IMG/VR virus record: IMGVR_UViG_3300022666_000141
Span: 1,367-65,366 of that record
DNA length: 64,000 bases
Origin: a virus
Lineage: Duplodnaviria; Caudoviricetes
Reading direction: 5' to 3' (one strand)
The notes beneath the pieces are model-generated. The model did not search any database. It saw only the letters and a list, made by a program, of their open reading frames with translations, and was not told where the DNA came from. The translations under genes and the position numbers were made by a program. Positions 1,720 to 31,289 of the stretch are shown here, piece by piece. Position 1 is the first letter of the stretch. Every line of letters begins with the position of its first letter.

Positions 1720-4479
1720 TTATATGGCAAGAGATAAGTACGGGACTGTGGATAAGTCCTCGGAAACGCCAGCTCTATTGAAGGATGCAACTTTGAAATA
1801 AAGGGTTGCACCAGCATCAACAGGCAAGATTGAGTAAGCAACAAAACCACCATCATATACAGCGAAGAGATCTCCTGCTTCAATATCCCCTGTTTCATGA
1901 TATAACACCGTTCCGGCTTCATCATAAATGAAGTCTGTCAATTTCCATATTCTAGGTGAAAGTAACGTTGCTGTCATGAACCGACAGAACTTATCTCCGG
2001 AGTTAGTCCGCACCACAAACAAATTCATTAGTGGTGTGGCAAGTAATTCAGCAAATGTAAGAGCCGAATTTAGCGTATCGTCCGTATCCAAGGCTACGAT
2101 GATATAAGGAGGCTCAGAAGTAGCGGAAGGCGAGCTAGAAGGCGAAGTTGAAGGACTATTTGAAGGTGATGAATCCAAACTTGGGCTGCTTGACGGCGAA
2201 CTACTAACCGATGGGCTGCCAGAAGGGGACGAGCTAGCGGAAGGACTTCCAGAAGGGGAACTAGACGCACTAGGAGAAGATGATGGAGAATCACTGGGAC
2301 TTGAACTTGCCGTCACCGACGGAGAGGAGCTCGGTGATGAATCCAAACTTGGACTACTTGAAGGCGAAGAACTCACACTTGGTGATGCAGAAGGACTGTT
2401 AGAGGGGCTTGCGCTGTTACTCACCTCCATGTTCACACTCAATACGGTACCAGTGATGCCCGATCCGTTCCTTGACGCGACAGATTCGTAAGTACCACCA
2501 GCGGAATATGACCTATAAAGTTCAACCCCATCCCAAGCTTCATTGCCAGATTCAGAGTAAGCAACACCAACTAGATTTCTATCAGTGTACATATTAGGCA
2601 CTCGAAACGCTATCGGGTGTATTACAGAACCAGCAGGATCATTATACGCTGGTGCAACAGGTTGTGAAGCTGGAAGGTAGCTTATCACCCAGCTATTGAA
2701 TGTTCCAGATCCCCCAATAGAAGTTATATTGACAGTTAGTGTATTAACAAAATACCCGAGAACAGTTCCATCCATATAGTTAGAACTACTTCCAGAAGCA
2801 GAGATATGAATCCTGCCACCCTCAACGAAATCAATACCAGCAGCGACCTGAAATGATTTCTCACCAAGTCCTATGGTGATGGATGAACTAGATGCGCATG
2901 TGATTCCAGGTGCGTAAACGAAAGTGTTTACATATGGACTATCATCCATAGCATCAACAACAATCTGATAGTCTGGTTGTTCTTTGATAGCACCTATCCT
3001 TAGATTAGCTGCATTCATTTCAAGATCAGCCTCAGTGAACTCTATCACTTGGCCGGGTCGTAAATCCAAATTCTTCAACCCCAACTTGAATGAGTATGTT
3101 TGTACATCAATCAAGGATTTGCGTAACATTCTGTATGCCATCCTGATAGCTCGCACCCAAGTACAGAAACCTTCAAGGTTGGTCGTTACGTCAAGCAAAC
3201 CATTCTTATCTATATCAACGACATCATCAGCAGTAACAACACCAGTTACATATTCATCTGACCTCTTAGTATATTGAACATTGACTCTATTCTTGTAATC
3301 CTTGCCAGCTTTAGAAGTACCAGCCATAGGAAGTTGGTTTATAATCTTCACTAGATCAGACGTTCCTAACCGTGTCACTGGTGTTTCTACCTTCAACTGA
3401 TGGTGCGAAATGACACCATTCAAATACGTCATGTATCCATCATGATGATTTATTACCGCTTGTAAAGCATCGAGTACGCTAACTTGTGAATCGAATACTA
3501 ATGATATGTAAAGATCATTATCTTCACAATATTTTTGTGATACGGTTGCAGCAGCATAATCCCATACGGAGTCATCAAGACCAAGACCATAAAAATCATT
3601 AGTCAATATGTCCCAGGTTATCGCCTGAGGTAGTACATCTTGTGGGTTGCTTGTTAAATTTATATAAATATTAAATAACTGTACACGCTCATTTAGAGCA
3701 TCAGCAACCCATATTATAGCACTAGTGCCTGTTCCATGAGCACTTAACAAATGAGCCCCATTAAACAACCCAGCACCAACACCCTGGCCACCGGAATGGT
3801 ATGCAAAAGTTCCAGAATTAGTCCACACAGACAACCGATTATTCCCAGAGTCCATAACACAAACATGGTTTTCAACTGAATATGTAATGGACGTTGGATT
3901 GTCCAGCTCCCCATCACCTTGCCCATACAAACCGAATTGGCTAACATAAGACAAGTTGGTGTTCAATCTCTGTATTCTGTTATTTCCAGAATCAACAACA
4001 TAACAATAGTCTTGAGTGGAATTCCAAAACACATCGTTTGGGCTGTTGAATTGAAGATTTCCAGTTCCAGTACTTCCCACAGACTGAATGTAGTTTGCAT
4101 CTAAATCATACACATCAATACAATCATTTTCTTTATCAACCACTAATATGAATTCATCATTAATACAAATACCACCACATCTTCCATCAGAATGACTTAA
4201 AGCGAAACGTGAAACAAAAATTCCGGCGGTTGTGAATATTGATATATACTGTGACCCAGCATCAGTCACGTATATGTGATCTTCTTCAGCACTGTTGGAG
4301 CCAGCTTTAACACCATAAGGATTTACGAACTCCCCTTCCGCAGGATTTGTTGGATTAACTGCAGGAGTTCCAAATTCAGTAGTTTCTCCACCGGCATCTG
4401 GGTATATCTTGCAAATCCCATCCTCATAGAATGAAACGTAGGTGTTATATCCAAAATGATCTACTCCATATGGTCTCAT
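1720..4479 (-). CDS. Tail tip/host-specificity protein: NHL beta-propeller + phage-tail hub domain + Ser/Pro-rich insert
   Basis: NHL repeats (FNSPNDV, LDNPTSI, VMDSGNNR, ADALNERVQLF); hub motif WDILTNDFYGLG; NRVNVQY; ~100-aa SPSS tract; last gene of the tail operon. Confidence 0.8.
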   Translation of the reverse strand: MRPYGVDHFGYNTYVSFYEDGICKIYPDAGGETTEFGTPAVNPTNPAEGEFVNPYGVKAGSNSAEEDHIYVTDAGSQYISIFTTAGIFVSRFALSHSDGRCGGICINDEFILVVDKENDCIDVYDLDANYIQSVGSTGTGNLQFNSPNDVFWNSTQDYCYVVDSGNNRIQRLNTNLSYVSQFGLYGQGDGELDNPTSITYSVENHVCVMDSGNNRLSVWTNSGTFAYHSGGQGVGAGLFNGAHLLSAHGTGTSAIIWVADALNERVQLFNIYINLTSNPQDVLPQAITWDILTNDFYGLGLDDSVWDYAAATVSQKYCEDNDLYISLVFDSQVSVLDALQAVINHHDGYMTYLNGVISHHQLKVETPVTRLGTSDLVKIINQLPMAGTSKAGKDYKNRVNVQYTKRSDEYVTGVVTADDVVDIDKNGLLDVTTNLEGFCTWVRAIRMAYRMLRKSLIDVQTYSFKLGLKNLDLRPGQVIEFTEADLEMNAANLRIGAIKEQPDYQIVVDAMDDSPYVNTFVYAPGITCASSSSITIGLGEKSFQVAAGIDFVEGGRIHISASGSSSNYMDGTVLGYFVNTLTVNITSIGGSGTFNSWVISYLPASQPVAPAYNDPAGSVIHPIAFRVPNMYTDRNLVGVAYSESGNEAWDGVELYRSYSAGGTYESVASRNGSGITGTVLSVNMEVSNSASPSNSPSASPSVSSSPSSSPSLDSSPSSSPSVTASSSPSDSPSSSPSASSSPSGSPSASSSPSGSPSVSSSPSSSPSLDSSPSNSPSTSPSSSPSATSEPPYIIVALDTDDTLNSALTFAELLATPLMNLFVVRTNSGDKFCRFMTATLLSPRIWKLTDFIYDEAGTVLYHETGDIEAGDLFAVYDGGFVAYSILPVDAGATLYFKVASFNRAGVSEDLSTVPYLSLAI
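2113..2420 (-). repeat. Low-complexity Ser/Pro coding tract (SPSSSPS) within the tail tip gene
   Basis: Translates to SASPSNSPSASPSVSSSPSSSPSLD...SPSATSEP with synonymously degenerate codons. Confidence 0.9.
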
Positions 4480-7824: not shown

Positions 7825-8177
7825 TAGGTAACCACCTCATTCACTTGGATGAATGTCACTTCATTCAAACTGTACAGCTCGTACTCGAAATATTCAAAAT
7901 CATACGAATCTTTCTCGAACCGAACAACATACAAGGTACCGTCCTCATCATACAAGTTGAATGCCTCAAATGCCCCTTTTCTGGCAATGAAGAAATCAAG
8001 CACCAACTGGTATTGCGCTGCTGTCAAAGCCTCGAGGGACGCTTTTATCTTATATCTGGGGGTTGGCTCTAGGCTGATCCTTTGCTCTACCGCCGCACCA
8101 TAGTTAATGATGACAGTGCTGAATTGTGGGGTTTTTACTAAAGGAAAACTTATAGGTACATCAGGAAAGTCAGCCAT
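7824..8177 (-). CDS. Distal tail protein, DUF2460-like
   Basis: PQFSTVII...EQR...FFIARKGAFEAF...VRF motif; immediately downstream of the tape measure. Confidence 0.75.
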   Translation of the reverse strand: MADFPDVPISFPLVKTPQFSTVIINYGAAVEQRISLEPTPRYKIKASLEALTAAQYQLVLDFFIARKGAFEAFNLYDEDGTLYVVRFEKDSYDFEYFEYELYSLNEVTFIQVNEVVT

Positions 8178-14076: not shown

Positions 14077-14349
14077 TTATACCACCTTTATAGCAAGAGT
14101 CTTGGAGTACACTGCTTCATCAGACGCTGTAATCGACACAGTGATTTCATATGATCGACCAACAGTTCCACCTTGAAACCAGATATACACGATAGAATCA
14201 TCATTCTGCAATCTGGCTGGGCTGGTAATTCCGTCATCATCGGTAACTACAACAGAATCAATGATTTCTTCCTGAAGATCCTCGGTGAAATCTATGCCAA
14301 TGTAGTACTGTTCGGATTGTTTCTTCGGATCAGCTACAAAATCACTCAT
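14077..14349 (-). CDS. Small acidic virion protein, fibre/collar adaptor-like (Gp77-like)
   Basis: K..EQYYIGIDF...WFQGGTVGRSYEITVSI pattern resembles phage fibre-adaptor proteins. Confidence 0.5.
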   Translation of the reverse strand: MSDFVADPKKQSEQYYIGIDFTEDLQEEIIDSVVVTDDDGITSPARLQNDDSIVYIWFQGGTVGRSYEITVSITASDEAVYSKTLAIKVV

Positions 14350-14361
14350 ATCGAACCTCAC

Positions 14362-16539
14362 TTATCTTGGCATGGATTCAAACAACCATGTTTTTGGTGG
14401 AACCTCAAACATCCTTGTCCTATGCGGAACTTCAAATATCTGTCTCGGATGACAATCAACAATTCCAGTAGATGCACTAGGACTGCGACTTGGTGATGCA
14501 CTTGGTGACCTACTTGGGCTCGAACTTGGTGATGCGCTCGGGGAGCCACTTGGACTGGTTGACGGTGTCTCCGATGGTGAGCTGCTTGGTGTCTCGCTTG
14601 GGCTGCTCGAAACTGAACTGCTTGGTGAAGCAGACGGTGACGAACTTGGTGTTTCGCTTGGACTGCTGCTTACGCTACTACTCGGACTTCCAGAAGGGCT
14701 ACTTGATTCAGAGCTACTCGGACTGCTTGATTCTGATGCGCTTGGTGATGCGCTTGGACTGCTGCTAACACTACTACTTGGCGACCCGCTAGGCGAGCTA
14801 GAAGGAGTCTCAGATGGACTTGCGCTCGCTGAAGCTGAAGGACTTGCAGACGGACTGCTTGACACCGACGAGCTTGGCGATGCTGACTCGGAACTGCTTG
14901 GTGACTCACTTGGCGACCCGCTAGGACTTGTACTTGCACTTCCACTTGGACTAGCAGAAGGTGTCTCGCTTGGTGATGCACTTGCTGAGCTTGAAGGACT
15001 AGCACTTGGTGACCCACTGGGAGAAGTGCTTGGGCTTCCACTCGGGGATGAACTTGCAGATGGACTACTACTTGGGCTTCCAGAGGGCGACCCACTCTCA
15101 GAAGCCGAAGGGCTGCTACTCACCGAAGAACTAGGAGAACCGCTCGGACTGCTTGAAGGTGACGAGGAAGGGGAAGAGCTTGGACTTCCCGATTCAGAAG
15201 CACTAGGCGAAGACGAGGGGCTTCCTGACGGTGTATTTGAAGGTGACGAACTCTCAGAAGGACTTGTAGACGGAGAGCTACTCGGACTACTTGAAACCGA
15301 CCCACTAGGTGAAGCCGATTCGCTTGATGACGGTGAAGAGCTTGGGCTCGCACTTTCTGAAGCCGATGGTGAACTGGACGGGCTTCCCGATGGTGAGCTA
15401 CTTACACTAGAACTTGGACTACTGCTAGGTGTGCTCGATTCGCTGGCAGAAGGCGAACTGGATTCTGAAGCCGAAGGGCTGCTTGATTCTGATGCTGATG
15501 GAGAAGATGATGGGCTACTTGATTCCGAAGCAGAAGGGCTGCTACTCGGACTTGAGCTTGGTGATGAACTTTCACTGGCAGACGGGGAACTGCTCGGGGA
15601 GCCCGAAGGCGAACTCGACACAGACGAGCTGGGAGAGGAACTCGTGCTGGACGATGGGCTCCCCGATGGTGATGAACTTGGACTTGAACTCTCACTCGGT
15701 GATGCTGAAGCAGACGCACTTGGGCTGGCGGACTCACTAGCCGAAGGACTACCGCTTTCTGAAGCAGATGGACTACTAATACCAGACGATGAAGGCGAAC
15801 TACTCGGACTCCCCTGTTCGGATGTCATCCCGCCCCATACTGGAATCGGCTCGAAAACTTGATAGGGATTATCGCTGATGCTTTTGATTTCGGCATCGGT
15901 CAATACTCTGTCGTAAACTCGCACGCAATGGGCTTCGCAATCAATTGGCGAATAGCTCCACTCATTGCCCCCATTGAATAGTGTCACATTGTAGGGAAGC
16001 CTTGTTCCTGAACCATCCCACTCAGTTGATAGGCTTGTGATGCGTTTGCCATCGTGATATAGTTTCGGAGCAGAAAGGCCATCCCAAGAGCCAGCCAATG
16101 ATTTAGCTGTGGTAAGAGCGTTTGCAGCCCTAGTCCACGGATAACCACTACTGGTAAATACTTGCATTTCGTATGAGCCATCATTTACCCAGAGAAATGG
16201 GCCACCACCACGGTAAAATCCTTGGTCACCACTGTTGAGCGAGCGGAAGTTGCCGCAGATAATCACGGTTCCCCGTTGTTCAATAATGTCTCCGGTATTT
16301 GTGACTATCCCATGCTGGCTGCCGCTCCCAGTGAACCTTATGCCATCTGGATGTCGCGGGCTACCTGCTTCATAAAGTGTTGCCCTACTGCCATCTACGG
16401 CATTAATAACTGCGCTGCCTGTTTCTTGGAAATCCCAACACCGGATAAGCCCCTGCGTACTCCAATGACCGTCACTTCTGAGCCTCGTTCCTGCTGGTGG
16501 CTTGCTCGTCCAATCAATTTTTATCGGTATCAGCGCCAT
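14362..16539 (-). CDS. LamG/ConA-like lectin domain + ~450-aa Ser-rich repeat stalk + short C-terminal tail
   Basis: LamG motifs WDFQE and LYHDG...VRVYDRVLTDAEI, then SxSx repeats and the C-terminus CHPRQIFEVPHRTRMFEVPPKTWLFE. Confidence 0.82.
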   Translation of the reverse strand: MALIPIKIDWTSKPPAGTRLRSDGHWSTQGLIRCWDFQETGSAVINAVDGSRATLYEAGSPRHPDGIRFTGSGSQHGIVTNTGDIIEQRGTVIICGNFRSLNSGDQGFYRGGGPFLWVNDGSYEMQVFTSSGYPWTRAANALTTAKSLAGSWDGLSAPKLYHDGKRITSLSTEWDGSGTRLPYNVTLFNGGNEWSYSPIDCEAHCVRVYDRVLTDAEIKSISDNPYQVFEPIPVWGGMTSEQGSPSSSPSSSGISSPSASESGSPSASESASPSASASASPSESSSPSSSPSGSPSSSTSSSPSSSVSSSPSGSPSSSPSASESSSPSSSPSSSPSASESSSPSSSPSASESSSPSASESSSPSASESSTPSSSPSSSVSSSPSGSPSSSPSASESASPSSSPSSSESASPSGSVSSSPSSSPSTSPSESSSPSNTPSGSPSSSPSASESGSPSSSPSSSPSSSPSGSPSSSVSSSPSASESGSPSGSPSSSPSASSSPSGSPSTSPSGSPSASPSSSASASPSETPSASPSGSASTSPSGSPSESPSSSESASPSSSVSSSPSASPSASASASPSETPSSSPSGSPSSSVSSSPSASPSASESSSPSSSESSSPSGSPSSSVSSSPSETPSSSPSASPSSSVSSSPSETPSSSPSETPSTSPSGSPSASPSSSPSRSPSASPSRSPSASTGIVDCHPRQIFEVPHRTRMFEVPPKTWLFESMPR
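14470..15812 (-). repeat. ~1.35-kb degenerate Ser-rich coding repeat (SPSS/SPSA/SESS tetrads)
   Basis: Ser occupies nearly every second residue over ~450 aa; the DNA units are not identical. Confidence 0.92.
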
Positions 16540-16548: not shown

Positions 16549-16938
16549 CTATGCGCTTATCCCATTTTTCCTGACATAGGCGTTGACGGTAATGGTTTCC
16601 GATGCGGTTCCCAGCTTCCGACATTCAAGGCGGAAGGCGTAGCAGCCAGAGACGACGATGGACTTCTCGAAAGTCGTCGATGCCAGCCTGCCGATGGAGC
16701 CGGATACAAAAGCGATGTCATCGTAGACTTCGGTGGTATCGTCCAGTGTCGTTACAATGCGGAAGCCGAGGTCGTTGGCTGGAGTGGCTGGGAAGGCGGC
16801 AATGATTTGCACAGTTGCGCTCTCGCCAGGAAGCAGAGTGACTTTGCTCGATACGTTATCGAGATACGAGGCATCGCTATCGACGGTATCATCGACCGAC
16901 TGCCCACTCATAATTTGTGTTTTATTTCCCCAGGACAT
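16549..16938 (-). CDS. Hypothetical beta-rich protein, probably structural
   Basis: 129-aa ORF tightly packed between the glycosyltransferase gene and the Ser-rich gene. Confidence 0.6.
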   Translation of the reverse strand: MSWGNKTQIMSGQSVDDTVDSDASYLDNVSSKVTLLPGESATVQIIAAFPATPANDLGFRIVTTLDDTTEVYDDIAFVSGSIGRLASTTFEKSIVVSGCYAFRLECRKLGTASETITVNAYVRKNGISA

Positions 16939-17688
16939 TTATAGCTCCTTTCTGTATTCCTCCATTACGTTTACAAACTTGCCCCAAGGCTCAAGCTCAT
17001 ACCTTCTATTCTTGCCACGCCTTGGGCCGGTGAAATTGCTTCCGTGTCGAATGTCGAGGTTTGGTTGTTCTGTTCTGAACGTGGAACAAGTAAACCTCGC
17101 CAAATGCTTTTCAAGGTAAGGCTGCAAATATTTACATTCACCACTGACTGCAATACGAGCAGCTTCGACTACTTCAGGTGGAAACGCACCAGGCTCACCC
17201 AGTCGTTTCAATATCCTGAGCCCACCCTCAAGGAAGAACATCCTGTCTTCAATGGACTCTATCAAGAGTTTCCTATCACAAACCAATTGGGATAATGCCT
17301 TCCTGCCATCATTCCAGTAGGAGTACATCCCGTTCAGCTCTGGATGATTGCCTCCCCACTGAACAAACCAACAATTGGTGTTGTACCAGAAGGTCGTATT
17401 ATCTGGAGGAGTCCAAGCAACGTGCTCTTTTGTGTACATCACGTCATGTTCAGCAATCATGACGAATTCGGTTGTTGCTTGTTTCAAACCTTCAAGTTGC
17501 TGAACGTAAATGTTGTACCAATTCCTTCCAATATCACCAACATTTATGTTATGGCCAAAATCTAATGGCTTCTGGCTAACAGATATTATGGAACAATCGC
17601 CTGAAACTCTGCGAAGCTGATCCCTACAAACCTTCGCTATCGATTCTTCAAGCCGACTGTCGGTTATGTAGATGATTGTCTTATTCAT
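16939..17688 (-). CDS. Glycosyltransferase-like (GT-A fold), paralogue A
   Basis: TIIYIT...GLKQATTEFVMIAEHDVMY, a DxD-like motif after a hydrophobic strand. Confidence 0.65.
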   Translation of the reverse strand: MNKTIIYITDSRLEESIAKVCRDQLRRVSGDCSIISVSQKPLDFGHNINVGDIGRNWYNIYVQQLEGLKQATTEFVMIAEHDVMYTKEHVAWTPPDNTTFWYNTNCWFVQWGGNHPELNGMYSYWNDGRKALSQLVCDRKLLIESIEDRMFFLEGGLRILKRLGEPGAFPPEVVEAARIAVSGECKYLQPYLEKHLARFTCSTFRTEQPNLDIRHGSNFTGPRRGKNRRYELEPWGKFVNVMEEYRKEL

Positions 17689-18361
17689 AGTATTTCACGA
17701 TTTCTGTACCCCGTCCCCAATAAGGAATTTCAATGGCAAGGTACGAGCCAAGTTTTTTCCTATGACGTTTCTGCCGGTCCTCAGTACCATTGTCATGTGA
17801 CAATTGAACTATCGGTGTTCGAGAGTAGAACGTAACAGCTTTTCTCTGCGTTACACCAAGTCCCCTCTCTATGTTGTTCCTGCCACATTCCCCCATGAAC
17901 TGCATAGGAAAGTTATTGTTTGGGTGCTTGTCAAACCGTTCTTGCAACGCCTCAATCAACAATTCCCTCGGTGCTATCAACGAACAATTACTGATTCGCT
18001 GGCGAACTGAAAACAGTATCGGTGGCCATGTAAAAAGTGACCATCGACTGAAGTTATACGCAAACTCGCCATTCTGTGGGCGAAAGCAACGATAATGCTC
18101 CTCGGAGTACAACGTGTCATCTTCTGCAACCCCTATGAATGGGGTTTCTGCACGTTTCGCACCAACAAGTAATTGACGATATATGTTGGCATAATCCTTC
18201 TTATCGTTTTCCAATATGTTCAACCCGAAATCAACGGGCTTTCTTGATATCGTGATTACTGGGAAATCACCGACAGCCTTTTCTAGGACTTGTCGATGGA
18301 AAGACACCCACTTGCTGGGCACCTCATTCGCAGTAAGATATATGACAGTCAGATCTTTCAT
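17681..18361 (-). CDS. Glycosyltransferase-like (GT-A fold), paralogue B
   Basis: LTVIYLT...GAKRAETPFIGVAEDDTLY; aligns by eye with 16939-17688. Confidence 0.68.
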   Translation of the reverse strand: MKDLTVIYLTANEVPSKWVSFHRQVLEKAVGDFPVITISRKPVDFGLNILENDKKDYANIYRQLLVGAKRAETPFIGVAEDDTLYSEEHYRCFRPQNGEFAYNFSRWSLFTWPPILFSVRQRISNCSLIAPRELLIEALQERFDKHPNNNFPMQFMGECGRNNIERGLGVTQRKAVTFYSRTPIVQLSHDNGTEDRQKRHRKKLGSYLAIEIPYWGRGTEIVKYYE

Positions 18362-19854
18362 TTCTTCAGTAACCATCCCCCCTTGGTGAAGCCGAATACA
18401 AACCGCGCATCGAAATCAGTCAGTTTGTAATCTCTGTTTCTGGCAAGGAACCAATCCCGAGCCTCACCAGGCCCAACAAGTTCGCCTTGTCTACCGTAAC
18501 AATCTTCAACAACCATGAATTGTCCTGATGTTACGATATCGGCATATCTATGAAGCTCCCACTTGACCTGTTGACGAGCATGGTTACCATCTATGGACAA
18601 CATGACTTTCATCGGACGATCCTGCACATTGCTTTTTAATCGAATCATTTCTTTGATTTCAGCAATGATTTTTTCATCTTTGGAATCGCCTTGTAAATAA
18701 GTTATGCGTGGATGTTGGACCAATGGCCCTCTTGGAGTGGGGTCAATGGATACAACGCAGCCATTTCCCGCCATTTCAAGGAAATCGGCGAACATCAATG
18801 CCGATGCACAAAACGCCGTACCAATCTCAATGATAAAGTCCGGACGCCGTTCCCATATCGCCATCTGGTACAAAACTATGTCGGTTGGCATCTTGATCAT
18901 CTTGATACCACGCCAACGGGGATCATGTCCCTTGAGGTGTATGTTTTTGTAAAAGAACGACTGCAGTTCTGTGCGCTTTCCATCTTCCATATCAGGAACT
19001 CTCCCTTCCCATGTAGGGGGATTGAATTTGTCGACCAACCATTGAATATTTCGTTTCTGCTGTGGCCACTTGTTGTTCAGCCACAAATCCATAGAATATT
19101 TTCTGGCATTATCAACCTGTCGACCTGATATTGGATATGGGAATCCACCATCCCCTCCCCTAAACCAATGAGCAAACCAGGTATTCTTATTAACTTTGAG
19201 TGCTCCACCTGACAGCCACGCTTTGAGAGCAACCTCTATTCCCTGCTGTCCCCATGAACCGTGATTCTCATCACACCCACCAAGTTCAAGAAACCTGGCT
19301 TTGTGCATGAAAAAGCACGGTCCCATACAACACATCGTATCGTCTATCAGCTCAGTACGGTCGTGCCATCTGCGAAAATCCTTGCCCGTATAATACTGGG
19401 CACGCATTTCGTCTTTATCGTTCCAACCGATATACATATAATCGGTTCGTTTATGTAGTTTGGGTTGCCACCGAACAACATCTAAGTTGTACATTCGTGG
19501 GATGACAGTCCAATCATATTCACAGTCAGCAGCTAGCTTTACATCAAAACCTTTATCAACTGCACAATGCGCGTCCAACTTCATTATGAACTTGCCACGA
19601 GCGATGGACGCCGCTCTGTTTATAGATTGTCTTTGTCCTAATGATTCGGTGTGGTGAAGGAGTGTTACTCTCGGGTGATCCAATATAGGAGGATCGGGCC
19701 AGTACCCATCGCATATGGCAATTATCTCAGTATCACCCTCGATGTTTGCCAGAACATTTTCTATCGTCTTTTGCAAGAACTTTTCGTTTCTTGCGGGTAT
19801 TATTACTGTCAATAGCACGGTCAAAACCCCCCAGTTTCGCCTTTCTAATACCAC
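18358..19854 (-). CDS. GT2/GT27 (ppGalNAc-T-like) glycosyltransferase fused to a CmcI-type SAM O-methyltransferase
   Basis: TVIIPARNE, LDAHC (DxH), GGCDE..SWG..GIEVALKAWLSGG...AHWFR; C-terminal WRG...K.PTD...YQ..IWE.RPDFIIEIGT. The true start may be GTG at 19818. Confidence 0.8.
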   Translation of the reverse strand: MVLERRNWGVLTVLLTVIIPARNEKFLQKTIENVLANIEGDTEIIAICDGYWPDPPILDHPRVTLLHHTESLGQRQSINRAASIARGKFIMKLDAHCAVDKGFDVKLAADCEYDWTVIPRMYNLDVVRWQPKLHKRTDYMYIGWNDKDEMRAQYYTGKDFRRWHDRTELIDDTMCCMGPCFFMHKARFLELGGCDENHGSWGQQGIEVALKAWLSGGALKVNKNTWFAHWFRGGDGGFPYPISGRQVDNARKYSMDLWLNNKWPQQKRNIQWLVDKFNPPTWEGRVPDMEDGKRTELQSFFYKNIHLKGHDPRWRGIKMIKMPTDIVLYQMAIWERRPDFIIEIGTAFCASALMFADFLEMAGNGCVVSIDPTPRGPLVQHPRITYLQGDSKDEKIIAEIKEMIRLKSNVQDRPMKVMLSIDGNHARQQVKWELHRYADIVTSGQFMVVEDCYGRQGELVGPGEARDWFLARNRDYKLTDFDARFVFGFTKGGWLLKK

Positions 19855-19935: not shown

Positions 19936-20556
19936 CTACCGACACGGCACCACATCCCCAAGGTTTACTGAAGGAAACATGGTCAACGCGCTGTCCGGCG
20001 TAGCATTTAATATCTCGAGCCCGAGCTTATTCGCATCGGATAAAATCTTTTCGAACGGTGGAAGAAACCGTTTTTCGTATATATCAATCCTTGGCCGATG
20101 CTTATGGTTGGTGTGCCAGTTGTGTTGACCTTCACGAACTTTCATATCGTACCCGATCAAAACTATTCGACTAGCACCAAGATGCATGGCAAGGTTTATC
20201 GCCGACCCACCTGAACTCTTGTTCCAAACAACCTTATTCCTGATAGAAGTCAATCCATAACCTTCGTTCCGATTAACATGTAACACCCTCGGCAACTTCT
20301 TACTTGTTGGAGGGCATCCAAACACAACCCCTTCATACGATCTGAGCAAAGTCTTGTTCCACGCATACCAACGCTCATCCCCGAACCATGTTACATCAAC
20401 CCAATTACCGAGCTTAAATGCGTCGTTGACTCCAACAACATGACATTTCATAATAGGTGACAAATCCATGTCTTTTACGCTTGGACCGCCACCTATTATG
20501 AAAACTGTCCCGTCCCAGAGTTTAGGGATGTTCGGTAGACGCTGAAACAAGTGCAT
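19936..20556 (-). CDS. Maf/MptE(DUF115)/sialyltransferase-like protein
   Basis: VFIIGGGPS, VVGVNDA, SSGGSAINLAMHLGASRIVLIGYDM, ILNATP. Confidence 0.65.
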   Translation of the reverse strand: MHLFQRLPNIPKLWDGTVFIIGGGPSVKDMDLSPIMKCHVVGVNDAFKLGNWVDVTWFGDERWYAWNKTLLRSYEGVVFGCPPTSKKLPRVLHVNRNEGYGLTSIRNKVVWNKSSGGSAINLAMHLGASRIVLIGYDMKVREGQHNWHTNHKHRPRIDIYEKRFLPPFEKILSDANKLGLEILNATPDSALTMFPSVNLGDVVPCR

Positions 20557-20991: not shown

Positions 20992-22086
20992 TTACGGCTC
21001 CTCGAAATGGACGATGCCACAACGACCGGCCTGCGTTGAACGAATCTGCGGAACCTTGATACCCATGACTTTGTAATGAAGAACCATACCGCCCTGTTCC
21101 GACCATTCGACAGGAGAGATTTCCATGCCGGAAACAAGCCGCACGACATCGGAAGTCATCTGGACCATGATAACCGATTCCTGGCCGGATGCATTCTGGC
21201 TCATCTTGTCGCTGACCTTGATGTCGCTGATTCCCTGGATCTGAAGGATACGCTGGCGAATGGTAATGTCGCCTTTGGCCGTACTGTAGTCCTCATCGAG
21301 TTTGGTTTCATACGCGGTCGGCACATATACGACGTACGGACCATAGAAACGGTCGCCGATAAGAACCTGCTTCATGGCGAGGATGTCATTGACGATATCG
21401 GCACCGGTGACGCCAGATGCGTCCCATGCTGCCCCGAGTTCGCCGGTATTGCGATTGGTGTAGTCCCGATAGCCATAGATCGTTCCGTCGCCGTATGCGT
21501 AGGAACTGGCACCGTTGAAGAGCATGTCTTCGATTTTCTCCGTAACAGCCCGAGCCGCCATTTCAGCGTTGGTGGTGTCGAGGGATTCGCCGGTGTTACG
21601 TGATGCGGCAAGAACGCGAGCATTGATGAAATAGTCGCAATGAACAAGGGGCAGCGGCAAGTAGCTGGCCACATAGTTTGCCCGGTCATTGGAACCCCTG
21701 GAAAGTCCGTCCATGCTCAGTTGTGCGGTGAGGAACTCATTCAGTGTTTCCGTCTCGAGGATCGTCTTGCCGAGGCCGTTGGCGATAGTGTAAACAAGGC
21801 CGCGAGAAGTAAGATCAGATACACCGGACAGCCGAATGCGTGCTTCACGTGTTATTGCTTCGTCGTATTGAAGCCACTCGTCCTTCCGAAGAGTCGCCGC
21901 ATTGGTTACGACAACCTGCGGCTTGCCATTGGAAATGACGGTCTGGTAGGCACGACCATCCTTTCCGATCCATGGTCTGAGCGCATGAACGCTCATTCCG
22001 TTTGCGAGCAAGCGAGCCGCCGCCGCTCCGCCTCCTGACAGACCCTGACCGTTTACGCTCAGGATGTCAACTTGTGCACCATTCAT
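20992..22086 (-). CDS. Major capsid protein (HK97 fold, Linocin-M18/encapsulin-like type)
   Basis: TLRKDEWLQYDEA, LPLPLVH.D..INAR.L.ASR, YGY...NRN, FYGPY; follows protease-scaffold-decoration genes; GC-rich codons. Confidence 0.85.
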   Translation of the reverse strand: MNGAQVDILSVNGQGLSGGGAAAARLLANGMSVHALRPWIGKDGRAYQTVISNGKPQVVVTNAATLRKDEWLQYDEAITREARIRLSGVSDLTSRGLVYTIANGLGKTILETETLNEFLTAQLSMDGLSRGSNDRANYVASYLPLPLVHCDYFINARVLAASRNTGESLDTTNAEMAARAVTEKIEDMLFNGASSYAYGDGTIYGYRDYTNRNTGELGAAWDASGVTGADIVNDILAMKQVLIGDRFYGPYVVYVPTAYETKLDEDYSTAKGDITIRQRILQIQGISDIKVSDKMSQNASGQESVIMVQMTSDVVRLVSGMEISPVEWSEQGGMVLHYKVMGIKVPQIRSTQAGRCGIVHFEEP

Positions 22087-24301: not shown

Positions 24302-24355
24302 CTATTGAACTATTTAGTCTATTTATTCTATAATAAAAAGTTTCGCTTATGACAA
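24302..24355 (-). promoter_or_regulatory. Putative late promoter with a conserved 17-bp box
   Basis: Minus strand TTGTCA-17-TATAGA followed by ACTAAATAGTTCAATAG, which is identical to 33683-33699. Confidence 0.55.
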
Positions 24356-25924
24356 CAAGTCAATGAAAAAATCATGGAGTTCTTTGGGCAGGTCCCCTTT
24401 GTATGTTGGGTCTGTAAATACCGTAAAACATGTAGCAAACAATTCCTTCTCGTTGGTCTTAGCATATGCACACACCTCATCAGCTATTCCCGAACGATAT
24501 AAATCAGCCATGGCACTGGTATACTTGTCAGGACCTAACCATTTGAAACCCTTTCCTTTAGCAATAATATCACAGTTGTAGTGGATATGATGTCCTAATT
24601 CATGTCGAATACTTCCCAAGAACGACGTTGCCGTATTGAATACACCCGGTCCCAATCGATACGTACTCTGAGTTTCTAGTAAACCAGCAATCTCAATGCT
24701 ATTATTCGTATTCAGATAAGTTCCCAACACTCTTCCATTCGGAACTTCTCGTATACTATCACTATTAATAACAAAAGTATCGAGTTTGGTTTGATGAAGA
24801 ACTCTCTTAATACCAGGATATCGGTTGGCAAGGTCTAAGTAGCAATCTTTGGCTTCATCAATCTTATCGTAGATATCATCACTCGGATTTCTCTTGGCAA
24901 AGAACTTAACATTATCTGGAAGTTTCTTCCATGTCTTCTGCCAACTCGGAACTCTCGGAGCACGAGGAGCTCGTGGCTCTTGAGAAGCTCGGGCCGCTTT
25001 CTGGGGATTAACTACGGGTAAAGCTACACATCGACAATTTGGGTGACGAGGTATCATTCCTCGTATTTCCTGAAGACTAAAAACTTTCCCTTGCAACGGA
25101 GCACATCTCGGACAAACACCGAAACCTGCGGTAAGCCATTCAGCCTGAACATCAACTCCCTGGACACCCCACTGTTCGTATTCATTAATTGTGGCCTGGT
25201 GATGTGCGCTAACAACTTCTGTACGAGCAAGTGTTTTGCCTCGATTAACACCAATTGCATCGATTCTATCCGATAATTCTCTCGCCATAGCATACGGATT
25301 TTTACCTTCGGCCATTCCTTGTGCAAGAACACGGCTCATTTGTTGTGACATCGCTCCTGTGATGCCCTTCAATTCATTAAATGTTCTTGTATAGATCATA
25401 GCAACCCGATCAGCATGGAATGGTTGATTGAAAGCTGCGGTGATACGAGCTCCTTCTATCTGTGTTGCACCAAACGCAGATGGAACATCATAACCTTTCC
25501 TACGTAATTCCGCTCTAGCTCTCGATATGCCCCGTTGATACGCACTCTGAATATAAAGGTTCGTCCAGGGCTTCTCTCCTACCCGAAAATCCGTCCTGGA
25601 AGTAACGGTCAGAATATGCTTCTTCGTCATTTCATCAAGCCACTTCATAAACTGGTCGATCTTCTGGTCTGAGTGTGCAAATTCGAATTGACGAGGCTCG
25701 AGGTTGGTTGTTAGAATATTAATATTCAACTGATGTGATCTTTCTCCCAGACCAAACACATCAAGAGTATCCACCGCATATATTACTTCTTTCTTCAATG
25801 CATCGAAGCGTCGTTGAATATCCGCCATGAATGAGCGTCGAAGAGACAGTGTTCTGGTTGGATCTGTCCGTAAGGCACCATTGAGTGTCGGTCTGGAGGA
25901 ATGATTACATGTACACGTTGTCAT
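24347..25924 (-). CDS. MuF (SPP1 gp7-like) head morphogenesis protein with a C-terminal HExxH metallopeptidase-like extension
   Basis: RGKTLARTE, CPRC, PRHPNCRC (MuF core); C-terminal RHELGHHIH ... YAKTNEKELFA. Confidence 0.85.
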   Translation of the reverse strand: MTTCTCNHSSRPTLNGALRTDPTRTLSLRRSFMADIQRRFDALKKEVIYAVDTLDVFGLGERSHQLNINILTTNLEPRQFEFAHSDQKIDQFMKWLDEMTKKHILTVTSRTDFRVGEKPWTNLYIQSAYQRGISRARAELRRKGYDVPSAFGATQIEGARITAAFNQPFHADRVAMIYTRTFNELKGITGAMSQQMSRVLAQGMAEGKNPYAMARELSDRIDAIGVNRGKTLARTEVVSAHHQATINEYEQWGVQGVDVQAEWLTAGFGVCPRCAPLQGKVFSLQEIRGMIPRHPNCRCVALPVVNPQKAARASQEPRAPRAPRVPSWQKTWKKLPDNVKFFAKRNPSDDIYDKIDEAKDCYLDLANRYPGIKRVLHQTKLDTFVINSDSIREVPNGRVLGTYLNTNNSIEIAGLLETQSTYRLGPGVFNTATSFLGSIRHELGHHIHYNCDIIAKGKGFKWLGPDKYTSAMADLYRSGIADEVCAYAKTNEKELFATCFTVFTDPTYKGDLPKELHDFFIDLLS

Positions 25925-26125: not shown

Positions 26126-27595
26126 TTAATCCTCCCCCGGAGCAGAAGCAAACCTTCCACGTGCGTCGTGATATGGATTGAAATTGTCAATCGGCTCTTC
26201 TTTCGGAGCCGGGGACTTTTTTCCAGATTCCTCTCCTCCTGGTTCGATAGGCTCTTCGATTTCTTCAGGGGGATTCTCTTCAAGCAACTTCTCAATACGC
26301 TCCACCTGTTCCCTGGTGAACCCAACAACTTCTTCAAGGAAGAAGTTCTCGGGAACTACTGCTTCTATCCCTGGTGCATTGACATATGCTGCGATGGTTT
26401 CCGTGCGTGTCTTACTGACCGTCGCCTGTTCCTGATCACTCATGCTCCACAGATCAGGCCAATCTGCCTGATACCCATCCTTAGGTGTAGGAAGAATGCC
26501 AACCTCGATCAACCGATCAACAACAGGACGCAGGATGAACGGTTCTGCAAATTGAATACGTCGCTGCTCAATACGAGTCAACCAATTGCTCTCATCCTGC
26601 GTACTAGCCAACTCACCACGCTCAGAACCCACCAATATTCGCTTCGGGATGCCCGTATCCCCCGCTAACAAGTCAAGTTGAATATCAAGATAGTCCTTCG
26701 GACTGGAAATCAGATCAGGGGACAGATTCTGAACATCCATATTCTGAAGACGCATGTATCTTCTGAGCCCGTGAATATATTCGTCGATCTCTTCACCCAT
26801 AGCAATGGCTGTTTGAGAATCGAGTGTTGCCCCCTCTTTTGTACTGAACGCCTTGCCCCCCAATGCACCCTGCCAGAACATCTCGGCAGAACCACCAGCC
26901 AGTTTGTCAATATCTGACAAACGGTTGAAACATGATTCCATCCTGGGAAGGCCAAGTACATCGTTTTCAAGACATTCACCAGCAGTATGAATGACCCTGG
27001 TCCAATGCACCTTCGATTCCTTATACTCCCCAACTATACCGGGTCGAATGAGTTTGATGGAATACTTATTGGGACGGCCGTACCGAGGATTCTTCTCATC
27101 GATCTCCCACTCTACTATCTGACAATTCCCCTCATGATACGGTTGGAGATATATCAAATCACTCGCACGACCTTCGAGGGGTTCCGGCAAATTCTTGCCA
27201 TCGTTGAAACCCAACAATAGAATAGCATACTGTCCCATTCCCACCAACTTGTCGAACCTGTTGAGCTTGGCGATGATGTGGTGTTTCCTGTTAAGCTCTT
27301 TCCATTTCTTCTCGAACTCAGTCTCTTCATCCTCCTGATTTTCATAGACCGATACGTCACCGAACCACGTGGCATCGACCGGTGCATTAATAATTCGCTT
27401 GCCCAAACTGCCCCGACGATAAGTGAGCATGTAGTCCTGGAATATCAGATCTTTCTTGTAACCAAGAACAGAGTAAAGATCCCGATTACCTTGAAAAGTC
27501 TGTCCCAACAGTCCAGACAGCCTCATTCGAGATATTACTTCAGCGAGATTTCTCAATTGCAGAACGTTCAATTCACTCTTCTTGTCGTCACTCAT
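26126..27595 (-). CDS. Portal protein, DUF1073 family
   Basis: RIINAPVDATW, PRYGRP..Y, VHWTRVIH, GIPKRILVG..GELAS..DE.NW. Confidence 0.88.
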   Translation of the reverse strand: MSDDKKSELNVLQLRNLAEVISRMRLSGLLGQTFQGNRDLYSVLGYKKDLIFQDYMLTYRRGSLGKRIINAPVDATWFGDVSVYENQEDEETEFEKKWKELNRKHHIIAKLNRFDKLVGMGQYAILLLGFNDGKNLPEPLEGRASDLIYLQPYHEGNCQIVEWEIDEKNPRYGRPNKYSIKLIRPGIVGEYKESKVHWTRVIHTAGECLENDVLGLPRMESCFNRLSDIDKLAGGSAEMFWQGALGGKAFSTKEGATLDSQTAIAMGEEIDEYIHGLRRYMRLQNMDVQNLSPDLISSPKDYLDIQLDLLAGDTGIPKRILVGSERGELASTQDESNWLTRIEQRRIQFAEPFILRPVVDRLIEVGILPTPKDGYQADWPDLWSMSDQEQATVSKTRTETIAAYVNAPGIEAVVPENFFLEEVVGFTREQVERIEKLLEENPPEEIEEPIEPGGEESGKKSPAPKEEPIDNFNPYHDARGRFASAPGED

Positions 27596-27612: not shown

Positions 27613-28353
27613 TTATCCTAACTTTGATTGAAATGGCTCGACAGTCAAACGTTCTGCACGAAAAGCCTTTGACCCCCACTTCCGATCGAAATACCGTTTA
27701 TTGACAACATGCAATTTTGCATAATCAGCGGGTTTGGACTTGGAATGAGCTTGGTGCATTACGACCAGATCGTCCCTTTCCACTATTCGAATGTCGTTAC
27801 TAAGTATTGTATTCCTGAAATCGTCGTCCTCGAAACAAACTCCTTTCGAATATTCTTCATCAAACCCACCAATCCTGTTATACGTTTCTTTCGAAAGGGC
27901 CGAACAAAAATGAACTTTCACAGACCGATGAACAGAGTGTTGATACCATTGTCTCGTTGGTATTCGACAAGCACATACAACGTACTGATCAGGATTCTGT
28001 TCAAACGCTTGGTCCAATCCTTCCAATACATTCGTCTCATGCAAACACTCAGGATTGGTGATTACCAAGAACTGTCCTTGTGCTCTACGAGCCAACTCAT
28101 TGAATGCTGTACTTGGGTTCCAACAATCCGATGTTCCCGTAATGATGGTTTGGATATTCAATACCGGAGAAAAGTTTCCAAGCACCTTCACCAAAGCAAG
28201 GTGTTCAATCTGATCCATCATATTCTTGTAATCTTCCCCGATAAGTATCTCATAGTCATTTCGACGATACAAATGCAAGAATGAGGAAAGAGTCACAGCT
28301 AGTTGTTGTGCTCGTTTATGAAAGGGCATAAGTAAACTATACTTCACAGACAT
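27613..28353 (-). CDS. Glycosyltransferase, GT2/GT7C-like
   Basis: YSLLMPF, IGGFDEEY..G..FEDDDF, HQAH. Confidence 0.8.
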   Translation of the reverse strand: MSVKYSLLMPFHKRAQQLAVTLSSFLHLYRRNDYEILIGEDYKNMMDQIEHLALVKVLGNFSPVLNIQTIITGTSDCWNPSTAFNELARRAQGQFLVITNPECLHETNVLEGLDQAFEQNPDQYVVCACRIPTRQWYQHSVHRSVKVHFCSALSKETYNRIGGFDEEYSKGVCFEDDDFRNTILSNDIRIVERDDLVVMHQAHSKSKPADYAKLHVVNKRYFDRKWGSKAFRAERLTVEPFQSKLG

Positions 28354-29153
28354 ATTTCAACCGCCTTTCGACAAATAGCATATTTATTCGCCATATCTTT
28401 GATATTGTCTTCGGTAACGTTTATTTCTCGTTTAGAACACTCAGGATTGCCGGCAAACCAATGATATCCTATACAATTAGGGTGTTTTGGCAATTCTATA
28501 TCGGTAAAATACTTCACCACATCCTGGTGTAAACGCCACGGGTAAACCAACGTATGATTGATGTATCCCGGTGCTATCCCATTCCACTTGAACAAGAACT
28601 TGTCAAGGAGATGGGCACCAAACGCTTGATAATCATTCTGAGGAATTCTGGAAAAACCGAAAGCAAACAACGAATGAAAAAACACCTTTCCCCAAGGCCC
28701 CCCACTTGTCAAAAACCCGATCGCCTGAAACAATTTGGTTCTATTGCCCGTTGCGGGGTACCTACAGAGCCCAATATCCGGCAATTCTTCCATCGTACTC
28801 TGCTTTACATGACTTGTATACAGGATGTCCATGTCTGACCATAGCCCACCGACTGTCCCTAGCAGATACCATCGAAGTAAATCAGACTTATGAACTTCGG
28901 GTGTGTTATTTGGAATTCCCAACATATCAAAATCAATTTCCTTGGTAACCAAACGTTCGAGATAATCAGGTCCCTGGTACGTATTTCCCTGTTCCCCACT
29001 CCCCCACGGCCGACGCCTGGAGATGACCTTCGGCACCCATACGTTTATCTCCCAATCAGGATTCAACATCTGAAAACTCTTGACCGTGAGATACCGCATG
29101 TATGACAGGGATTGGTTCTTTCCCCAGTAGAAGTGGACAATTTTAGGTATCAC
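28344..29153 (-). CDS. Glycosyltransferase, GT32-like (DxD sugar-binding)
   Basis: MIPKIVHFYW, SDLLRW..L...GGLWSDMD. Confidence 0.8.
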   Translation of the reverse strand: MIPKIVHFYWGKNQSLSYMRYLTVKSFQMLNPDWEINVWVPKVISRRRPWGSGEQGNTYQGPDYLERLVTKEIDFDMLGIPNNTPEVHKSDLLRWYLLGTVGGLWSDMDILYTSHVKQSTMEELPDIGLCRYPATGNRTKLFQAIGFLTSGGPWGKVFFHSLFAFGFSRIPQNDYQAFGAHLLDKFLFKWNGIAPGYINHTLVYPWRLHQDVVKYFTDIELPKHPNCIGYHWFAGNPECSKREINVTEDNIKDMANKYAICRKAVEICL

Positions 29154-29331
29154 GATTCAAGTCCTTAAGAATCTGTTTTTTGACTGCCAACGCTGAACAT
29201 TCCCAATTCGACTTAATCTTAACAGGCAATTCTTCCCATGTTGGCAGATACTCTCCTCGTATAGATACTCCTCCACACGATCTACAATAAGCTCTATATG
29301 CTGTTCTTGCCAGTTCTGTCACCGATGTCAT
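29143..29331 (-). CDS. Small hypothetical protein
   Basis: 62-aa ORF overlapping both neighbours (coupled). Confidence 0.55.
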   Translation of the reverse strand: MTSVTELARTAYRAYCRSCGGVSIRGEYLPTWEELPVKIKSNWECSALAVKKQILKDLNRDT

Positions 29332-30314
29332 ACGAACTCCTTATGATCAATATCAGACAACAGTCCCTTCAATACACGGTTATAAGCACCATAATAACAC
29401 GTTACACAAGCCTTGGCTCCTTGGAACGGTTTGTTTCTCTTGCCAGAGGTAAAATTCCAAATCGTCCCCAAACACAATTCTTTAGGGAAATTCTTGGTTG
29501 GGGAGGGTAAAGCATACTGAACACCACAACAAGCATAGACTTTCAGATCAGGTGTCACAACAGGTTTCAAATAACAGATATAACAGTCCTGTTCTTTCTC
29601 AGGATTCGCTCGAGCCTGAAAGATAACAGGAACTGTGCACAGTTCCAAGTAATCTTCAAGTTCTTTCTCAACTTCCTGCATCGGGACTTCATCGGCGCAC
29701 AGAAGATCGGCAACAAACCGTATATGCGTTGCCTTCAAAGCCATAGCAAGGGCAATCGTTTGTTTGATGCGTTCTATATTCGGATTCTTGGATACTACGT
29801 AGCTGATTGCCCACCCAATATGACGTGTTAAGGAAACCAGTTGTAGCAAATTAGCGACATGATCCTGGGAAAACTCATCCCGATCGTCTCCATAACTGAT
29901 ACGACACCAGGACAACGTATTAAGACTAAATGCCTTGTTAGGGTGCAGAAGCAGCCCATTCGTTACTAACCCAGTCTTGATTTCCTTCCAGTAAGCGAAT
30001 TCAAGAAGGTTTTGTAGATATGGGTACGTCATGGGTTCACCGCCACCCGTTATCGTCATTCCAACGGTGCCATGAGCAGCCAGGAGATCCACGGCTCGCA
30101 CCATATCACGAAGAGACATTTCCTGCGTACGATCTTCGTTTGCACAGGAACAGAACGAACAATTCAAATTACACTTGTTTGTAGGGATGAACTGAACGTG
30201 TCTCGGTGGTATACTCCTTGTTCTAACAATACTAGCAATCGTTTTATGATCCTGCAACAACTTATACGGGATCGAATCCGCAGAAGTATACGACGTAACC
30301 GCATCGGCCATCAC
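29328..30314 (-). CDS. Radical SAM enzyme with C-terminal SPASM/twitch-like Cys
   Basis: CNLNCSFC, TGGGEP, VTNG, C-terminal CYIC...CC...CVTCY. Confidence 0.85.
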   Translation of the reverse strand: MMADAVTSYTSADSIPYKLLQDHKTIASIVRTRSIPPRHVQFIPTNKCNLNCSFCSCANEDRTQEMSLRDMVRAVDLLAAHGTVGMTITGGGEPMTYPYLQNLLEFAYWKEIKTGLVTNGLLLHPNKAFSLNTLSWCRISYGDDRDEFSQDHVANLLQLVSLTRHIGWAISYVVSKNPNIERIKQTIALAMALKATHIRFVADLLCADEVPMQEVEKELEDYLELCTVPVIFQARANPEKEQDCYICYLKPVVTPDLKVYACCGVQYALPSPTKNFPKELCLGTIWNFTSGKRNKPFQGAKACVTCYYGAYNRVLKGLLSDIDHKEFV

Positions 30315-30877
30315 ACTCTCCTTTTATAACGTCGACTGGCTTGATAATGACAAATCACCGGTTCTATATTCCCATACACCCTTGGACTAAGATCGTATAT
30401 CCACGTAAACTGGGGTGGTAATCGACAAAAATTAATCAAGCCACGTCTTCTCTCCACCACAGACTGTAACGTTCTCTGATCCCACTTCTTTGAGTTCTTT
30501 CTGTTCTCATGGGCCCAATCCGCTAACAACAAAACAGTTCGAACCGTTGGGTTGACCCATAACGTACCCGATAACAGTTCCCGGCCTCTGAAATAGTGTG
30601 CAGCAAAATCAATATTCACGTAGTCTATCAGAACAGGAAACTGTTTGAACCGAGCATCAGAATCCACATACAAGAATGGCTTTCTGTTCAGATCAGCCAC
30701 GGCTCTCAGTAGGATTTGAGCTTTTTCCTGACAATTCGCTTCCCACGAACCTTTATTCTTGACAGGATACACAACGACTTCCCGAATACCAACTTCCCTG
30801 GCAGAGGCCGCCATCAACCGAACTTCGTCCTCGTAAGGAGTGTCAACGGTATAGAAACTCACCACAGGGACCATCAC
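30311..30877 (-). CDS. Nucleotide-diphospho-sugar transferase-like (GT77/GT8-like)
   Basis: K...L...FLYVDSDA, SGTLWV, WDQRTLQ. Confidence 0.7.
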   Translation of the reverse strand: MMVPVVSFYTVDTPYEDEVRLMAASAREVGIREVVVYPVKNKGSWEANCQEKAQILLRAVADLNRKPFLYVDSDARFKQFPVLIDYVNIDFAAHYFRGRELLSGTLWVNPTVRTVLLLADWAHENRKNSKKWDQRTLQSVVERRRGLINFCRLPPQFTWIYDLSPRVYGNIEPVICHYQASRRYKRRV

Positions 30878-31127: not shown

Positions 31128-31289
31128 CTATCCAAAACAGTAAGAACAACGACGATATGTTTTCCCAACAAGGTCCGAAGATGTGATCTCTACTATCCCA
31201 TTAGTTTTAGTGACGACTGGACATTTCGCAGAATTATGTATTGTCATGTTGCCACGTTTGAAATTACGTATGCTAACATAATATGTCAT
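31128..31289 (-). CDS. Small putative Zn-binding protein (53 aa, not in ORF track)
   Basis: MTYYVSIRNFKRGNMTIHNSAKCP...RRCSYCFG; ATGA overlap with the terL stop. Confidence 0.55.
   Translation of the reverse strand: MTYYVSIRNFKRGNMTIHNSAKCPVVTKTNGIVEITSSDLVGKTYRRCSYCFG

Follow-up and report, generated by a model that had tools for sequence, protein, structure and literature searches.

The locus described here raises the question of why a tailed bacteriophage would carry, among the genes for its own particle, an enzyme resembling those that initiate mucin-type O-glycosylation in eukaryotes, and on what such an enzyme would act. The window (the whole stretch of 64,000 nucleotides that was analysed) covers positions 1,367 to 65,366 of the IMG/VR record IMGVR_UViG_3300022666_000141 (Duplodnaviria; Caudoviricetes), that is, nearly the entire 65,366-bp virus record. 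Its minus strand bears a siphovirus-like late operon, and within it lies the gene in question, an open reading frame (ORF) at 18358-19854 (minus strand) that encodes a genuine two-domain protein of 498 amino acids (aa) counted from GTG. The N-terminal domain is a glycosyltransferase (GT) and the C-terminal domain a methyltransferase (MT). An initial annotation of this DNA had likened the first domain to the polypeptide N-acetylgalactosaminyltransferases (ppGalNAc-Ts) of family GT27 and had proposed that it adds the first N-acetylhexosamine (HexNAc) to Ser or Thr. In its GT-A fold, its DxH...H triad and its C-terminal half, the GT domain fits GT27 better than any other solved glycosyltransferase. 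The best reading, which we favour with reasonable but not high confidence, is that it starts peptide O-glycosylation on the serines of Ser-Pro-Ser-x (SPSx) tracts. Because the enzyme adjoins a fibre with a 458-residue Ser/Pro repeat, the phage probably coats its own particle proteins with sugar.

Is the GT domain like GT27 in particular, or would it resemble family GT2 at large? The GT-A catalytic domain spans aa ~14-285 (19000..19815, minus strand) and is marked by a D94/H96 + H229 triad and a Gal/GalNAc-T-like motif, W201..E207. A phmmer search against all PDB sequences gave significant matches to this half of the protein exclusively among ppGalNAc-Ts: T1 (1.1e-10), T2 (2.4e-8), T4, T7, T9, T10, T12 and TgGalNAc-T3 (8uhv; PMC11074326). 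The best GT2 chains outside GT27 scored 0.02 or weaker. In the comparison of GT27 with GT2 that the initial annotation had suggested as a check, a profile of 48 homologues matches GT27 chains over profile positions 3-249 (7e-13 to 1e-7), whereas GT2 chains outside GT27 (6p61, 5hea, 3bcv, SpsA) are matched at positions 2-99 alone, the nucleotide-binding half. An AlphaFold (AF2) model made from 48 homologues has a mean predicted local distance difference test score (pLDDT) of 91.9 and shows two well-defined domains with a low-confidence linker at aa ~286-300; its predicted template modelling score (pTM) is 0.63, and therefore the model does not fix how the two domains lie with respect to each other. 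When the model was compared with PDB by Foldseek, all of the 50 best matches (50/50) were ppGalNAc-Ts (E 3e-17 to 1e-13). VIA-align, run against 48,161 representative chains, placed mouse GalNAc-T1 at Z 26.6 (267 residues, 3.2 A) and TgGalNAc-T3 at Z 24.9, with the next GT-A chains (WrtF, AvpGT, SpsA, K4CP, TarS and others) at Z <=18.3, a gap of ~8. Since phmmer, the family profile, Foldseek and VIA-align agree, the GT domain is specifically GT27-like and not generically GT2-like.

It could still be argued that the resemblance reflects generic convergence within the GT-A fold and that the protein is an ordinary GT2 enzyme with no special kinship to mucin-type transferases. For the GT domain Pfam yields PF00535 (Glycos_transf_2) alone (aa 16-153, 7.8e-14, 52.4 bits against a gathering cut-off of 23.3), PF02709 is without a match in the Pfam scan of the fusion protein, and identity to GT27 is ~20%. 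PF00535, however, also takes in the GT27 catalytic domain, so that a match to it cannot discriminate GT2 from GT27. Three independent measures (sequence similarity, the extent of the profile match in the acceptor half, and structural Z) rank GT27 top by a clear gap, and the DxH...H triad is strictly conserved; we find such convergence hardly credible. The protein is described here as GT27-like and is not filed as a GT27 member, because the lectin domain and the membrane anchor are missing and the donor pocket is altered.

The motifs on which the likeness was first noticed are all present in the ORF (KLDAHCAVD, MGPCFFMHKARFLELGGCDE, SWGQQGIEVALKAWLSGG and FAHWFR). HMMER pairs LDAHC with the LDSHC of GalNAc-T1/T2, WGQQGIE with WGGENLE, and AHWFR with GHVFR. 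At the level of residues, D94-x-H96 pairs with D224-x-H226 of T2 and H229 with H359 (T2 numbering verified by chain offset); W201 pairs with W331, E207 with E337, and F231/R232 with F361/R362. The mark of GT27, a DxH together with a distal His (the Mn2+ triad), is thus found at the sequence level. D94, H96, H229, W201, E207 and R232 are invariant in the 48 homologues, and so, judged by the alignment, the motif match to GT27 is not a chance one. When 158 domain copies were aligned, drawn from the top 150 representatives (50% identity clusters), 157-158 of them kept the triad residues; all of these representatives belonged to the phage-type family.

The second domain (aa ~301-498; 18361..18954, minus strand) is a class I metal-dependent O-methyltransferase of the CmcI/rhamnosyl-O-MT family. 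Its assignment, also made in the initial annotation, is borne out by Pfam, profile and structure. PF04989 (RMNT_CmcI) matches aa 313-497 (1.2e-27, 97.5 bits against a cut-off of 23.2), the family profile matches CmcI at 9e-15 in an alignment that spans the D..H and ED positions, and VIA-align gives CmcI a Z of 17.9 for this half, with the sugar O-MTs MeT1, SpnH, CalS11 and SpnK also among the neighbours. MeT1 methylates internal residues. The score for the equivalog of mycobacterial rhamnosyl O-MTs is 62 bits against a cut-off of 400, and this status is not reached. Like the CmcI family (CmcI structures 2bm8 and 2br3), the domain has the class I fold for S-adenosylmethionine (SAM) with its Gly-rich motif, in which G345 is invariant; D371, D422, H425, E450 and D451 are invariant as well, and the acidic residues D371, D422, E450 and D451 occupy positions aligned with those of CmcI. 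It differs from that family in being fused to a glycosyltransferase, and the fusion is conserved in more than 100 homologues.

Translation probably starts at a later GTG, that of residue 13 (nt 19818), which gives 486 aa, because this codon sits 8 nt after a GGGGGG run, because the 95%-identical protein P0001 has 486 aa, and because the alignments with all homologues begin at residue ~14 only. The fusion protein has neither a membrane segment nor a signal peptide, and the N-terminus leads directly into strand beta-1. From these features and the gene's surroundings we infer that the enzyme is soluble, cytoplasmic and bifunctional, and that it is part of a phage-borne 'glycosylated fibre' module.

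What would the enzyme act on? The leading candidate acceptor is a 725-aa fibre-like protein encoded downstream (14362..16539, minus strand), which has a LamG head (Pfam Laminin_G_3 at aa 103-219), continues as a Ser/Pro stalk and ends in a C-terminal tail of 31 aa. The stalk is a tract of SPSx tetrads (aa 237-694, 458 aa; 14458..15831, minus strand) with 59% Ser, 18% Pro and a Pro spacing of 4 or 8. It is encoded with all six Ser codons, and the program TRF found no DNA tandem repeat in it; recent slippage is therefore ruled out as the origin of the tract. Each Ser next after a Pro is thus flanked by Pro at -1 and +3, and these are the positions at which ppGalNAc-Ts favour Pro. A second SPSx tract (102 aa, 59% Ser; 2116..2421, minus strand), which shares the vocabulary of the fibre tract, is an insert in a J-like tail-tip protein (ORF 1720-4479). 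In related loci the tract occurs also as a ~240-aa insertion in a phrog_3287 structural protein, and proteins that combine LamG and SPS repeats recur downstream of the GT gene in L009, L011 and L012. The carriers of the tract (LamG fibres, the phrog_3287 structural protein, the tail tip) are unrelated virion proteins.

The tracts and the enzyme tend to be present together and absent together, which backs the proposal that the SPSx tract is the acceptor. SPSx tracts are found in 15 of the 27 loci with the GT (11/19 viral loci from IMG/VR and 4/8 loci from metagenome-assembled genomes, MAGs) and in 0/10 loci of phages that are related by their major capsid protein (MCP) and are without the GT (Fisher one-sided p = 0.002, a value that overstates the association, since the loci are not phylogenetically independent). 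In IMG/VR the sole match to the LamG head of the fibre was a near-identical contig; the head is too variable and is therefore unfit for a reverse co-occurrence test. A direct view of joint loss is given by L022, the MCP of which is 67% identical. There the GT-MT gene, the genes for p231, p249 and p129, the SPS fibre and its adaptor are gone as a single block, and the order runs MCP, p125, DUF115 and then directly the DUF4054 connector, with syntenic flanks. In the more distant L023, L026 and L028 the same slot holds other sugar-tailoring genes, and no tract. The slot contents at L023:11715-14156 and L028:12385-17829 comprise a GT2 and a methyltransferase as well as sulfotransferases and a hexapeptide acetyltransferase. 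Judged by gene content, the stretch from MCP to connector looks like a preferred site at which cassettes for glycan modification are exchanged.

The same loci bear on a different account, in which the enzyme modifies a host envelope glycan (lipopolysaccharide, capsule, teichoic acid or the S-layer), so as to exclude superinfecting phages or mask a receptor, or else modifies another non-protein acceptor. The Ser/Pro tracts would then be plain flexible linkers, frequent among these phages by coincidence. Phage GT2 enzymes often act in seroconversion, architectures with multiple GTs and a terminal MT resemble O-antigen systems for polymerisation and termination such as WbdA/WbdD, and 12 of the 27 loci have no tract nearby. 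The gene, however, belongs to the late structural operon, where it stands between MCP and the head-tail connector genes, is co-oriented with its neighbours and overlaps with them. It is gained or lost jointly with the tract-bearing fibre and adaptor, its product is without a membrane segment or signal peptide, and what this product specifically resembles are polypeptide transferases and not polysaccharide synthases. A host glycan as the target therefore seems quite improbable to us.

The fusion protein is one member of a large family. More than 120 clusters (90% identity) share its architecture; they are 54-95% identical and nearly all metagenomic. With the GT domain as query, 1480 representatives passed a threshold of E <= 1e-3; the number falls to 715 at E <= 1e-10 and to 308 at E <= 1e-30. 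By the last threshold the GT27-like family comprises no fewer than 308 clusters (50% identity), nearly confined to uncultured phage contigs. Neighbours in the ESM Atlas are mostly Uroviricota clusters. The partners of the GT27-like domain vary (CmcI, Methyltransf_24, or a p231-like domain, alone or together with an MT), and some polypeptides, which reach 1352 aa, carry 2-4 GT27-like copies and a terminal methyltransferase. For example, the metagenome proteins P0122-P0131 (940-1350 aa) have 2-4 tandem GT27-like domains and a C-terminal Methyltransf_24; from their domain order they look like single-chain glycan assembly lines. That the family as a whole consists of true Ser-O-glycosyltransferases, a large, lectin-less and soluble GT27 branch of prokaryotic viruses with fused assembly lines building methylated brushes, is a proposition to which we give about an even chance.

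The hosts of these phages can be approached from several sides. Among 185,579 species genomes the gene is on 8 contigs only, all of them MAG contigs, in unrelated phyla, and a tblastn search of 50,697 GenBank phage records with the whole protein and with the GT domain found merely short N-terminal GT2 similarity; no cultured model phage among these records carries a relative. Matches to the GT domain occur in 5/301 sampled genomes of a small-genome phylum, that of G001 (Candidatus Parcubacteria by its MAG label), and in 1/285 genomes of the phylum of G003, a weak excess in the former. Two loci of the former phylum, L047 (G191:C15) and L050 (G034:C6), lie on contigs binned to ~1-Mb genomes. On contigs of this phylum the gene order is GT27-like, p231-like and a 1187-aa SPS-repeat protein; these contigs may be a lead to the host, or else mis-binned phage DNA. 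The large terminase of the phage in the window is ~40% identical to terminases of Flavobacteriia phages.

The enzyme does not stand by itself, and its neighbours raise the question of which protein would make the first bond. The cassette consists of the GT-MT gene, two GT-A paralogs (p231 and p249), the small ORF p129, the LamG SPSx fibre and a fibre-tail adaptor. The gene for p231 (17681..18376, minus strand) overlaps the end of the fusion gene and encodes a GT-A-fold protein of an unnamed family with an ExD motif; p249 (16939..17688, minus strand) is its paralog (34% identity over 148 aa) and shares the conserved motif. Neither has a match in Pfam or PHROG, or a sequence match in PDB. The AF2 model of p231 (pLDDT 86) matches SpsA/WrtF at ~1e-6 in Foldseek and GT-A and NDP-sugar transferases at Z 10-13 in VIA-align, and on this model p231 is a probable elongating glycosyltransferase. 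In most of the loci examined, a p231-family member comes next after the GT27-like domain or shares a polypeptide with it; among loci with several kb of downstream DNA none is without one. Rosetta-stone fusions connect the GT27-like domain with p231-like and methyltransferase domains. The remaining members of the cassette are p129 (129 aa; 16549..16938, minus strand), which is missing together with the cassette in L022, and a 94-aa fibre-tail adaptor-like protein (Pfam Gp77; 14077..14361, minus strand), which is within the block lost there. p129 has no family match, and a homologue (37% identity) follows a p249-like gene in the distant L036 (L036:13467-13820). p129 could be a chaperone or fibre accessory.

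Two further sets of sugar genes lie outside the cassette. A DUF115/MptE-like protein (19936..20556, minus strand; phrog_4603 'alpha-2,3-sialyltransferase', 1.4e-37; empty PDB sequence search) adjoins the cassette just after the MCP gene. It is kept in L022, L023, L026 and L028, which are without the GT27-like cassette and the Ser/Pro tracts, and for this reason it may represent a separate, older, capsid-associated sugar function. Between terminase and portal there is a second sugar block (27613..30877, minus strand). It encodes a 246-aa GT2/Glyco_transf_7C-like protein (27613-28353, minus strand), a 269-aa GT32-like Gly_transf_sug protein, a 328-aa radical SAM protein and a Nucleotid_trans-like protein of 188 aa. 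This block may act in the same pathway as the cassette. The GT2/7C-like gene was considered as a paralog of the GT27-like domain and rejected, there being no close paralogy and no PDB match.

These genes make it conceivable that the GT27-like domain elongates from sugar to sugar and that another enzyme initiates on Ser, the cassette still glycosylating SPSx. The candidates for such an initiator are p231, p249, the DUF115/Maf-like protein, a GT of the second block and a host enzyme. The phage has ~7 GT-like genes, p231-family domains are as constant a companion of the GT27-like domain as the tracts are, and the mega-enzymes with 2-4 tandem GT27-like copies suggest that some copies at least act on sugars; moreover, Maf proteins, relatives of DUF115, are protein O-glycosyltransferases of flagellin. 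Yet the characterised enzymes closest in sequence and structure all use Ser/Thr of polypeptides, the similarity of p231 is merely generic GT-A similarity, and DUF115, being kept in relatives without cassette or tracts, is not tied to the tracts. On balance we consider the elongation role unlikely.

Several observations nevertheless weigh against peptide initiation by the GT27-like domain. First, in the Gal/GalNAc-T motif WGGENxE, W201, G202 and E207 are conserved, and the positions aligned with G333-E334-N335 of T2 read Q-Q-G; position 204, which corresponds to E334, varies among Q, E, M and V in the family. We take E334 and N335 to be GalNAc contacts in GalNAc-T2. The donor is probably recognised otherwise than in GT27, going by the aligned residues, and since these positions differ and position 204 varies, a HexNAc donor is not to be assumed; this part of the initial annotation is not borne out. 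Second, HMMER sets M150 and A152 opposite F280 and W282, presumably residues of the peptide groove in GalNAc-T2, and conservation of the groove is not evident from the alignment. Third, GT-A families can switch acceptor class, and the overall identity to GT27 is as low as given above. Fourth, the 12 GT-bearing loci that show no Ser/Pro tract include many short contigs, yet L017, L018 and L036 among them extend over 13-18 kb, and the non-independence of the loci applies to the association as a whole. Finally, at least six other GT-like genes are present besides the GT27-like enzyme, and any of them could initiate.

Peptide initiation, which we continue to prefer, would proceed as follows. Before or during virion assembly, the GT27-like domain would transfer a sugar from a host nucleotide sugar to Ser in the SPSx tetrads of the adjoining LamG fibre and the tail-tip protein. 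The GT-A paralogs p231 and p249 would then extend the glycan, and the fused CmcI-like domain, metal- and SAM-dependent, would O-methylate one of its sugars. The idea of the initial annotation that this methylation caps the glycan, as opposed to decorating internal sugars, found no support in the analysis. The predicted product is a mucin-like brush of methylated glycan on the tail tip and on a fibre attached to the head or neck.

The rest of the late operon, all on the minus strand, is made up of particle genes. The large terminase (31286-32833) and the portal (26126-27595) are followed by a MuF-like/head-morphogenesis protein of 525 aa (24347-25924), which matches phrog_758 over aa 17-307 only and has a C-terminal extension of ~200 aa beyond that match. 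A protease/scaffold gene and then one for a cement-like protein come before the MCP (20992-22086); the tape measure (8177-11350) and tail-tip genes are also present.

To our knowledge, mucin-type O-glycosylation started by GT27 enzymes counts as a trait of eukaryotes (animals and protists), and we know of glycosylation of phage virion proteins demonstrated for mycobacteriophages only, by unrelated enzymes. A literature search for GT27 or ppGalNAc-T in connection with phages returned nothing relevant and no published description. If the proposal is true, mucin-type initiation chemistry would be placed outside eukaryotes, and many environmental phages would bear mucin-like glycan brushes with a bearing on adsorption, particle stability and recognition. 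The GT27-like phage family would also serve as an outgroup for the origin of eukaryotic GT27, making that origin testable. For glycoengineering in bacteria, the attraction would lie in soluble, single-polypeptide catalysts that combine initiation and tailoring and take a simple repeat as acceptor, that is, in cytoplasmically active O-glycosylation tools usable in bacteria.

How does the proposed system compare with those already known? With eukaryotic GT27 (GalNAc-T1/T2/T4/T7/T10/T12, Drosophila PGANT9 and Toxoplasma GalNAc-T3) the phage enzyme shares a GT-A domain of ~260 alignable residues (Z 25-27), the DxH and distal His triad, the W..G..E motif and the F/R of the GH(V)FR motif, and its gene is paired in the genome with Ser-rich, Pro-punctuated, mucin-like tracts. 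It differs in being encoded by a bacteriophage, in its Q-Q-G and its low identity, and in having neither a type II membrane anchor nor a ricin-type (CBM13) lectin, the place of which is taken by the methyltransferase. The predicted site of action is the bacterial cytoplasm, in contrast to the Golgi lumen for GT27.

A second comparison is with mycobacteriophages. According to PMC11600133 and PMC12619734, which draw on Freeman et al. 2023, GT and O-MT genes in the structural modules of Che8, Corndog and Myrna modify the phages' own virion proteins, with the C-terminal ends of capsid and tail tube subunits as acceptors. The hallmark of that type of virion O-glycosylation, a structural module that includes genes for a GT and an O-MT, is found in the window as well. 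The GT and the MT are separate genes in mycobacteriophages and fused here, and the candidate acceptors here, unlike those of mycobacteriophages, are long SPSx tracts in fibre and tail tip. Homology to the gp35/gp36 system of Corndog was considered and rejected: the GT is not homologous, and the MT has merely marginal class I similarity. Corndog gp36 has no PDB sequence match, and hhalign gives 0.3% probability for it against the GT27-like family.

A parallel in layout comes from Gram-positive bacteria, in which serine-rich repeat proteins (SRRPs) are glycosylated by GtfA/B and SD-repeat proteins by SdgA/SdgB (PMC3794999). As in the window, dedicated cytoplasmic GTs are encoded beside a protein in which a long stalk of Ser repeats bears a binding head. 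The initiators of those systems are of the GT-B fold, whereas the candidate initiator here is a GT27-like GT-A enzyme and the carrier is a virion protein.

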